A DNA stretch of 64,000 nucleotides from Zootoca vivipara (taxonomy: Eukaryota): the NCBI RefSeq assembly GCF_963506605.1, contig NC_083281.1, positions 5,518,001 to 5,582,000 on the forward strand, read 5' to 3'. Shown piece by piece: positions 34,606 through 37,600 of this stretch (its first letter is position 1; the number at the start of each line of letters is the position of its first letter). The notes under the pieces are model-generated. The model did no database searches. It was given only the letters and a program-made list of their open reading frames with translations, and was not told where the DNA came from. The position numbers and the translations under genes are program-made.

Positions 34606-37600
34606 TCACCCCTCCCCAGGCCCCCCCCCATGTGTCGGTGACGACTGGAAGCCTAAGAACTCAGTGCTCTCCGAGCCCGTTGGTGTGAATACCTCCCCCC
34701 AGTCCTGCGAGCCCCCCCCTTCCGCCTGGGAGGACGGGAATCCCAAAAAGTCCGTGGCGTCAGAGCTGGTGGGGGTAAAAACGTTCTGCCAATCTGCTCC
34801 TTCCTCTGACTGGGTGGATCTCGGTGACACCCATACCTCATCCTCTGGTTCCTCAAACTCCGCTTCCCAGCGCCATGGTGAGCTGCTCTCCCGTGCCTCC
34901 TCCTCCTCCCCCTCCCTTTCCATGTGCCAGGGCTTGGGTCTGTGGGGAAAGAGGGCGTGAAATTCTTCCACCAAGAATTCCTCCTGTATCTGCGTGGCTG
35001 GGACCCATTCATTCTGGGACGGTGGAGCATCCTCCCATGCCATGAGGTACTCCAGTCCCCCCACCCCCCACCTTGAATCCAGGATGGCCGTGGCCTCATT
35101 GAGTTGCTCCCTGCCTTCCCTCTCCCCCCCTCCCTCGGGGGTTTGTTCGCTGTCTCGGAGCCTGCTGCTTTCCCTGTACGGCGACAGCAGCGATCTATGA
35201 AACACTGGATGCACCCTCATGTCCTCTGGCAGTGCCAGCCTGTATGCCACCGGGTTGACCTGTTGCGTGACCGTGAAGGGGCCCAGCCTTTTGGGTGCCA
35301 GCTTTTTGCACCTCCCTCTGGTGGGAAGGCCCTCCGAGGACAACCACACCTTGTCCCCCACCCTGATGACCTCCCCTAGTCGCCTGTGGCGATCTGCCCC
35401 CTTTTTGTACGCTTCCTTGGCCCTCTCCAAGTGTTCTCTGAGCTGCTGGTGCACCGTCTCCAGTTCCTCTGCCCAATCCTCAGCCTGTGGGCCCTCCTCC
35501 TCCTCCTCCCCCTCCCTCTCTGGGAAAGATCTGAGGTCGCGCCCGTAATTGGCCTTAAAGGGCGACACCCCTGTGGAGACGTGCACTGCATTGTTGTAGG
35601 CAAATTCTGCTAGTGGCAGGCGATCCACCCAGTCCGTTTGCCTCTGGCTGACGTAGCATCTCAGGTACTGCTGCAGAATGGCGTTGACCCTCTCCGCTTG
35701 TCCGTTGGTCTGCGGGTGTCTAGCCGTCGACAAGCTGACCTCCACCTGCAGGAGGTTCATGAGCCGCCGCCAGAACCTGGAAACAAATTGGCGGCCACGA
35801 TCCGAAATAACCCTTAAAGGTAATCCATGCAGTCTGAAAACGTGATCAACAAACAGTTTGGCTGTCTCTTCTGCAGAGACTGCCCTGGCACACGGTATAA
35901 AGTGGCACATTTTGGACATGAGGTCCACCACCACCAACACTGCGGTCTTACCCCGGGAAGAAGGCAGATCTGTGATGAAGTCCATGGACACCACTTCCCA
36001 CGGCCTGTGTGGCGTGGCTAAGGGCTCCAGCAACCCTGGTGGCGCTGCTCTGACCACCTTTGCCCGCTGGCAGGTGTCACAGCCCCGTACATAGTCTCGA
36101 ACATCTTCCCTCACCCCTGGCCACCAGAAGTGTCTCATGACTAGGTGAGTGGTCTTGTCCCTTCCAAAATGCCCCGCCGTTGGGTTGTCGTGCATCTGTT
36201 TGAGGACCGTACGTCTGAGCTGGGTGGTGGGCAGGTACAGTGCACCCTTGTAGAAAAGCAGCCCTCTGCGTTCTGCAAAGTCTTTTGCCTGCTCCCTCCC
36301 CCCTCTCAGTTCTCTGAAGATGCGGTTGGCAAATTCATCCGCTGCCGTCAGTGCTGTGAGTTCTGCCTCGCTCACCACTGCTGCTCCGCAGGACCATGCC
36401 GACGGGGGGAAAATGTGCCTTGGGGCTGGTGGCTCCTCCTCCTCCATGTACTCTGGCTTGCGGGAGAGGGCATCCGCCCTGACGTTCTGCTCTCCCGGGA
36501 TGTAGTGTATGGAGAAGTTGAAGTTCGAGAAGAACTCTGCCCACCGTATCTGCCGCTGGTTGAGCACCCTGGCAGTTCTCCAGAACTCCAGGTTCTTGTG
36601 GTCTGTGCACACCTGGATGGGGTGCTTGGCGCCCACCAGGAAGTGTCTCCAGTGCTGGAACGCCGCGTGGATCGCCAGAAGTTCCCGATCAAAAACTGTG
36701 TAGTTCCGCTCTGGCTGGGTCAGCTTCCTGGAGAAGAAGGCACAGGGTCTCCACTCTCTGTTGGCGTCCAGTTGCAACAAAATGGCGCCCACAACTTTAT
36801 CAGAGGCATCTGTCTCAATGCGTAGGGGCGCGTCCTGAACCACGTGGAACAGGTTCTGGTCTGAGGCGAACACCCTCTTGAGGCTTTCGAACGCTGCTTG
36901 CGCCTCTGGTGTCCACCGGAACTTCTGCTTGCCTCTCAGGCAGTCAGTGATGGGAGCCGTAACTCGAGAGAAGTTCTTGATGAACTTCCTGTAGAAGTTG
37001 GCGAAGCCTAGTAGGCGTTGGGCATCTTTGCGCGTCCTGGGGCTGTGCCAGTCCAGGATGGCCTGCACCTTGTCCTTGTCCATCGCTAGCCCCTTGTCTG
37101 ACAGCTTGTAGCCCAGGAAGTCCACCTCCTTGGTGTGAAACTTGCACTTCTCCAGCTTCACATACAGGTGGTTCTCCTTCAGGCGCTGTAACACCTCCCT
37201 GACGTCCTTCACGTGCTGCACTGGGTCGTTGGAATAAATAAGGATGTCATCCAGAAAGACCAAGCATTTCCTGAAGAGGAGGGACCCCAGGACGTGGTGC
37301 ATGAAGGCCTGGAAGCATGCTGAGCCCCCTTGCAAACCGAAGGGCATCACCAGATATTCAAAAGAGCCCAGAGGCGTGAACATCGTGGTTTTCCATTCAT
37401 CGCCTTCCCGGATCCTGATTAAGTTGTACGCCCCCCTCAGGTCTAGCTTGGTGAAAATCTTACCCCTGCGTGCCGCTGTCAGGAGATCATCCACTCTGGG
37501 CATGGGGAAAGCCACTGGCTCTGTCACCGAATTCAGCCGTCTAAAATCCACCACAAGACGGCGCTGTTGCGTGTCTTTCTTGTCCACCCAGAAGACTGGG

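Follow-up and report, generated by a model that had tools for sequence, protein, structure and literature searches.

In lentiviral integrases the catalytic-core dimer forms a folded pocket that binds LEDGF, and a linear FxGF motif is not used; the integrases of Ty5 and MLV carry motifs that mimic host ligands. PogZ, which is a domesticated DNA-transposase gene and not a Gypsy element, carries a motif of the host TIM/IBM type. Such motifs consist of a helix, an acidic Ser/Thr-rich linker of 8-16 residues and an optional FxGF, the last being present in all known partners of LEDGF and HRP2; in the sections of this source consulted here, lentiviral integrases alone are named as cases of viral mimicry and the string "transpos" occurs 0 times (PMC9987994). 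For the FxGF end, one source gives the strict consensus D/E-x-E-x-F-x-G-F and reports that the lentiviral integrase binding site on LEDGF overlaps the FxGF site of MLL1 (PMC8022399), and another gives the alternative consensus S/E-x-F-x-G-F and describes a DPF3a peptide that binds HRP2 (PMC7337902). In the Ty5-Sir4, Ty1-AC40 and MLV-BET systems, a short modular motif at the integrase C-terminus together with a host chromatin factor gives target preference (PMC11054761). Target choice by vertebrate LTR retrotransposons is largely unknown, and the use of LEDGF is regarded as a lentiviral specialty.

The aromatic cage of retrotransposon chromodomains is formed by Y24, W45 and Y48; in the portion of the source considered here, chromodomains without the first and third cage residues (group II) are reported only from plants, and vertebrate elements belong to group I (PMC3350952). 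In the cage-less chromodomain of Ty3, the protein's own helix folds into the peptide site (bioRxiv 10.1101/2021.07.27.453949). Here we analyse a chromovirus in a stretch of 64,000 nucleotides from the lizard Zootoca vivipara (the window), for which a sequence-only reading had proposed that the integrase tail mimics a host TIM as a chromatin tether. This interpretation is partly supported; it included neither the decay of the chromodomain cage nor the extension of the pol frame into the LTR.

Results

The element occupies 34154-39964 of the window on the minus strand and is a complete Ty3/Gypsy chromovirus, with LTRs, target duplication, polypurine tract, gag and pol all present (Table 1). Its domain order, gag followed by PR-RT-RH-IN, SH3 and a chromodomain at the integrase C-terminus, is that of a chromovirus, and its 428-bp LTRs, with TG...CA ends, are identical to each other; the copy is intact and very young. 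A search with the last 164 pol residues against the genome of the window (1.44 Gb, 48 contigs) gave at least 150 copies, every one 98-100% identical (150 scored among 3,080 candidates), and the named elements nearest to it come from Podarcis and Zootoca. The G GGA AAC heptamer in the gag/pol overlap has the right phase for a -1 shift and is likely a ribosomal frameshift site. Self-priming of the Tf1/sushi type is expected to involve an LTR stretch complementary to the primer-binding position, and the exact 11-nt complement seen here suggests such self-priming; the same LTR stretch also codes for the final residues of the long pol frame described below. No tRNA genes were found in the window. 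The copy is intergenic, between serine-protease genes with exons at 27053-29074 and 44787. These genes are granzyme/mast-cell-protease-like and form a tandem cluster on both strands (4337-6497, 11222-14073, 27053-29074 and 44787), in which numerous duplicated and inverted segments occur at 20-26 kb and 40-45 kb.

Table 1. Features of the chromovirus copy, in window positions
Feature	Position	Strand	Remarks
Target-site duplication	34149..34153	.	CCTCC (5 bp); other copy 39965-39969
3' LTR	34154..34581	-	identical to 5' LTR; pol frame extends into it in most copies
Polypurine tract	34582..34595	-	
Pol frame	34606-38418	-	1270 codons
Acidic tail past chromodomain	34609..34944	-	112 aa; stop at 34606-34608 in the window copy
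Motif unit 2, DWGEVFTPTGSESTEFLGF	34648..34704	-	30 codons after unit 1
Motif unit 1, DWQNVFTPTSSDATDFLGF	34738..34794	-	D-W-x-x-V-F, 9-residue Ser/Thr/Asp linker, FLGF; TIM/IBM-like
Chromodomain, decayed aromatic cage	34957..35100	-	Pfam PF00385, E 3.4e-6, above cut-off; frame residues 1109-1154
Integrase SH3 domain (SH3_Tf2-1)	35173..35358	-	
Integrase zinc-binding domain and catalytic core (rve)	35713..36225	-	
Aspartyl protease, reverse transcriptase, RNase H	36520..38253	-	
G GGA AAC heptamer	38397..38403	-	gag/pol overlap
Gag (Retrotrans_gag, Ty3_capsid, zinc knuckle)	38268..39494	-	
Primer-binding position	39524..39534	-	11 nt exactly complementary to LTR 39675-39685
5' LTR	39537..39964	-	428 bp, TG...CA

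The two tandem motif units that the sequence-only reading placed after the chromodomain, in an acidic tail with a 30-residue period, were both located there on the minus strand. FLGF occurs twice in the tail, once per 19-residue unit. The units have 13 of 19 residues in common, yet 37 of 57 bases, and different codons are used at 11 of the 12 common residues that have more than one codon (non-Trp), which indicates an old duplication maintained for its protein sequence. When the tail was shuffled 200,000 times, F-x(8-16)-FxGF matched twice in 12 of the shuffles and once in 3,017 (1.5%), and both units are in frame at 29 of 30 loci (L001-L030). The tail is rich in E/S/G/P and has no Pfam family and no PDB match; in the ESM Atlas the tail had no usable match, and a relative gave only chromodomain clusters under 0.9. 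A third, decayed unit, with W-x-W-x-x-x-F and an acidic run and without FxGF, precedes unit 1 at 34820-34890; at roughly that position the families of L036, L043 and L097 carry a complete unit.

That Pol ends in the acidic tail, as had been read from the window alone, is true of the window copy, whose frame stops 13 codons past unit 2, but in most copies the frame runs further into the 3' LTR. Open frames of 1379-1380 codons are found in most of the 150 copies listed. Among 49 copies, a sample biased toward the type of the window copy, 29 have a frame about 109 codons longer, which crosses the polypurine tract, enters the 3' LTR and has a basic stretch at its end, 19 stop like the window copy and 1 stops otherwise. 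The Arg/Lys-rich end of the long frame is possibly a nuclear localisation signal. In cage-intact sister families the pol frame likewise reads across the polypurine tract and on into the 3' LTR, with an Arg/Lys-rich end; the loci examined for this long frame, sister families included, are L030, L109, L110, L062 and L063. A conserved motif of the L-L/W-C-W type follows the Arg/Lys-rich stretch in the motif clade, and in Podarcis relatives too.

In 56 distinct units compared, which are not independent and one of which is an off-frame chance match, the linker has 8 residues in 8 cases, 9 in 47 (as in the window copy) and 10 in 1, and its composition is 32% D/E and 73% D/E/S/T; it holds a Pro in 43 units, and a CK2-type site is found in 44. 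The position before the first Phe (-1) is hydrophobic in 52 of the 56 and the position four before it (-4) aromatic in 46, and the helix part thereby has the pattern of host JPO2 at the level of sequence pattern. The strict D/ExExFxGF occurs in only 2 of the 56 units, the window copy having D/E-x-T-x-FxGF; two residues before FxGF most units have Thr, 8 have S or E, and 48 have one of D/E/S/T. Given Thr in place of Glu and Pro in the linker, affinity may be weak or phosphorylation-dependent.

For the host, we compared 70 kb beside two zf-4CXXC_R1 genes. Exons of CDCA7L encode LADIF-NTPSDDED-FLGF and LREIF-REDSESENEA-FEGF, which match JPO2 motifs that are bound to the IBD in PDB 6EMO (E 2e-4) and 5YI9 (E 0.02), and CDCA7L M2 likewise departs from the strict consensus. 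The paralogue CDCA7 (L131, G000:C1) has one FxGF-type motif, IVKIF-YEDSDDES-FCGF, with the helix pattern and an acidic linker. The pattern hydrophobic-x-x-hydrophobic-F-x(8-10)-FxGF, set after the element and host sets had been viewed, matches 4 times in 201,761 host residues translated in six frames, and the CDCA7L/CDCA7 motifs account for 3 of the 4. An HMM built from 15 element units placed two host motifs first and third among 1,651 domains of these 201,761 residues, with E values of only 0.2-0.3, and the third host motif fell outside the top 12 of that search; against PDB, neither the motif profile at E 10 nor one single unit retrieved anything. A Podarcis unit has STFHGFD in common with the DPF3a peptide. 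An HDGFL2 IBD exon is present in the host genome, and PSIP1 exons were not detected by a Pfam search of the genome (1 match among 5 candidates, HDGFL2 only). Co-folding of unit 1 with a lacertid HRP-2 IBD (P0112, 461-546) scored 0.01 twice; run without alignments or controls, with a tool unproven on peptides, it is evidence in neither direction. The proposed likeness to TIMs stands as far as layout is concerned, being that of host JPO2/CDCA7L and human PDB motifs, but as to the partner, FxGF favours LEDGF/HRP-2 over the TFIIS or IWS1 that had also been considered (PMC9987994).

Among 108 matches to the SH3-chromodomain-tail region, F-x(8-9)-FxGF lies past the chromodomain in six Podarcis polyproteins, whose tails barely align elsewhere, yet keep it; the hydrophobic FVGF of P0101, another of the 108, was read as chance. 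Because selection on the motif was to be avoided, the genome was then searched blind to the tail, with SH3-chromodomain segments only, 30 of 150 listed matches being taken each time. Two such searches gave diverged lizard families with 1-3 units of the same layout, namely hydrophobic-x-x-hydrophobic-F, an acidic Ser/Thr linker of 8-10 residues and FxGF; in degenerate copies the units are often in a shifted frame, and L034 is without any. A third gave L062 and L063-L091, families with acidic tails and a full cage and without FxGF. The idea that the motif is a by-product of acidic tails was rejected on these sister families. When one tail of three units served as query for longer relatives, 1 Podarcis protein was found among 291 candidates.

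With the best 150 of 9,503 matches from a representative library added, 367 sequences in total formed 243 clusters, 25 of which have the motif. An integrase tree was built by a quick method, with a midpoint root and the tail excluded, from 150 representatives with long integrase coverage; 93 short ones were left aside, and these include L034, 7 representatives that carry the motif, and a Zootoca cluster in which it has decayed to LSGF. The 18 motif rows all group together as a single clade (SH-aLRT 100), L062 and L070 jointly form its sister group (SH-aLRT 99), and the motif occurs in 0 of the 132 other rows, so it is not general among chromoviruses. It is retained all across the clade, whose members have 58-99% integrase identity to the window copy, and 61 other representatives whose tails reach at least 60 residues do not have it. 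In 19 units below 85% DNA identity, both Phe codons are used at each of the three Phe and all four Gly codons occur. On this codon usage and phylogeny, the motif is under protein-level selection and clade-specific. Conservation, which the sequence-only reading had named as a check, is strong in related squamate elements but limited to one lizard clade.

At the three cage positions the window copy has N, W and A, versus Y, W and Y in sister families, and it does not have the three aromatics of methyl-lysine-reading group I. Among 216 representatives compared, none of the 25 motif-bearing ones has a full cage, against 162 of the 191 others. Since the loss of the cage and the gain of the motif both map to a single branch, they count as one event and not as 25; in P0007 the cage is lost without gain of the motif. 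The motif clade has gag, PR-RT-RH-IN-chromodomain and a 5-bp target duplication in common with group I (MAGGY, sushi) and group II (plant) chromoviruses, and like group II it has lost cage residues 1 and 3 (PMC3350952). Unlike plant group II, it is found in a vertebrate, and the loss lies on a branch of its own and is accompanied by a new motif in the tail. Many intact-cage chromoviruses (P0162-P0299) have an AT-hook-like RGRGRP directly past the chromodomain and an S-P-x-F/Y end, another tail module in a neighbouring clade.

Discussion

We consider it probable, at roughly 0.6, that the tail unit is a mimic of a host FxGF-type TIM/IBM, which would dock the integrase on the IBD of HRP-2/LEDGF and tether it to H3K36me2/3 chromatin, replacing the cage-less chromodomain. 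The first half of the unit would form a short helix and place W/V/F in pocket 1, the acidic linker, probably phosphorylated by CK2, would lie on the basic patch of the IBD, with phosphorylated Thr/Ser in place of the missing Glu, and FxGF would enter pocket 2. Tandem units and integrase multimers would add avidity, and the PWWP domain would bring the integration complex to H3K36me2/3 chromatin, with biased target choice as the outcome. Whether the lineage as a whole swapped its targeting device, in that the cage decayed, a JPO2-like FxGF motif was acquired and multiplied, and HRP-2/LEDGF came to carry the element into H3K36-methylated chromatin, is in our estimate about an even bet. The coincidence of cage loss with motif gain fits a hand-over of targeting, and such a switch would be caught on one branch of the tree.

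In hydrophobic-x-x-hydrophobic-F, acidic linker and FxGF, the units resemble the host motifs of JPO2/CDCA7L (M1 and M2), MLL1, DPF3a, IWS1, PogZ and JIL-1, and they are tandem as the JPO2 motifs are; host motifs of the JPO2 type lie in a disordered region. Unlike host motifs, they sit on the integrase of an active retrotransposon, often have Trp for Leu/Ile and Thr for Glu before FxGF, and their TND binding is predicted.

Everything that supports binding of a TND, be it that of HRP-2/LEDGF or another, counts equally for a role in which target choice is not affected and the integrase is instead stabilised, held on chromatin or in the nucleus, or stimulated in strand transfer. Such a role agrees with the intergenic position of the window copy and with the 600-bp flanks of 54 motif-clade and 28 cage-intact-family copies, which do not differ in GC (p 0.88) or CpG (p 0.60); on targeting, these positional data are neutral to slightly against. 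They are weak proxies, because intergenic DNA also carries H3K36me2 and copies within genes are removed by selection. A precedent is JIL-1, which binds the LEDGF-domain protein JASPer via an FxGF motif and is unstable without it (bioRxiv 10.1101/624023). Against this, known integrase-tail tethers such as Ty1/AC40 redirect insertions (PMC11054761). Gain of the motif also coincides with loss of the histone-reading cage, and we hold binding without targeting to be unlikely, if the most serious of the alternatives.

A different short motif with a different partner appears more improbable still. The candidates are an ATG8/LC3-binding LIR, whose pattern is an acidic residue followed by W-x-x-V/I, and the acidic aromatic motif bound by the PH domain of TFIIH p62. 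The aromatic residue at -4, found in 46 of 56 units and preceded by Asp in 29 of 44, would agree with either, and at its place the host CDCA7/CDCA7L motifs have Leu or Ile. However, neither an LIR nor a p62 motif explains an FxGF at a fixed distance of 8-10 residues, and several units without W-x-x-V retain F...FxGF.

We give rather little weight to a role within the element itself, either as a cleavage site at which its own aspartyl protease trims the tail or as a stretch able to fold back onto the decayed chromodomain or onto a partner subunit of integrase. Retroviral protease sites are aromatic-Pro junctions, and Pro directly follows FxGF in 16 of 44 units, but 28 of the 44 are without it. 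For folding back, the Ty3 helix that occupies the peptide site of a cage-less chromodomain offers a model (bioRxiv 10.1101/2021.07.27.453949), and in several families the first unit begins about 10 residues or less from the chromodomain; yet unit number (1-3) and distance from the chromodomain vary, and the close likeness to host JPO2 motifs would be a coincidence.

That the units duplicated neutrally in tandem within an acidic tail of low complexity, or serve as a DNA/RNA signal by the polypurine tract (50-210 bases away), with FxGF arising by chance as short motifs easily do (one match in 1.5% of shuffles), is very improbable, as residues are kept while third codon positions vary freely, throughout a clade spanning 58-99% integrase identity and not in the 61 others with long tails. 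Recent neutral duplication and a DNA-level signal were both rejected on the synonymous pattern.

Returning to the TIM/IBM mimic, its predicted host domain and predicted outcome are those of lentiviral tethering through LEDGF/HRP-2 (PMC9987994). The lentivirus and lizard chromovirus lineages are unrelated, so a common tether would be convergence, and a host-motif mimic in a family of many intact young copies would represent the same tether by a different binding mode. Relative to Ty5-Sir4, Ty1-AC40 and MLV-BET, both motif and partner differ, and in the literature searched none of these is reported to use a TND. A TIM/IBM in an LTR retrotransposon was not found in the literature searched, a scope outside which subscription journals and the primary TIM studies lie; within that literature, binding of a host chromatin tether by the integrase tail is a known strategy, of which the FxGF version is new. 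If the reading is true, this would be the first LTR retrotransposon known on the lentiviral tether, reached through motif mimicry instead of a folded pocket. The cage-intact sister families of the same genome are a built-in control, and hundreds to thousands of insertions of motif-bearing and cage-intact families can be compared within it. Motif-clade (54) and cage-intact (28) copies have the same weak palindromic 5-bp target preference, and motif-clade target sites begin with G and end with C in about half of the copies, with A/T in the middle.
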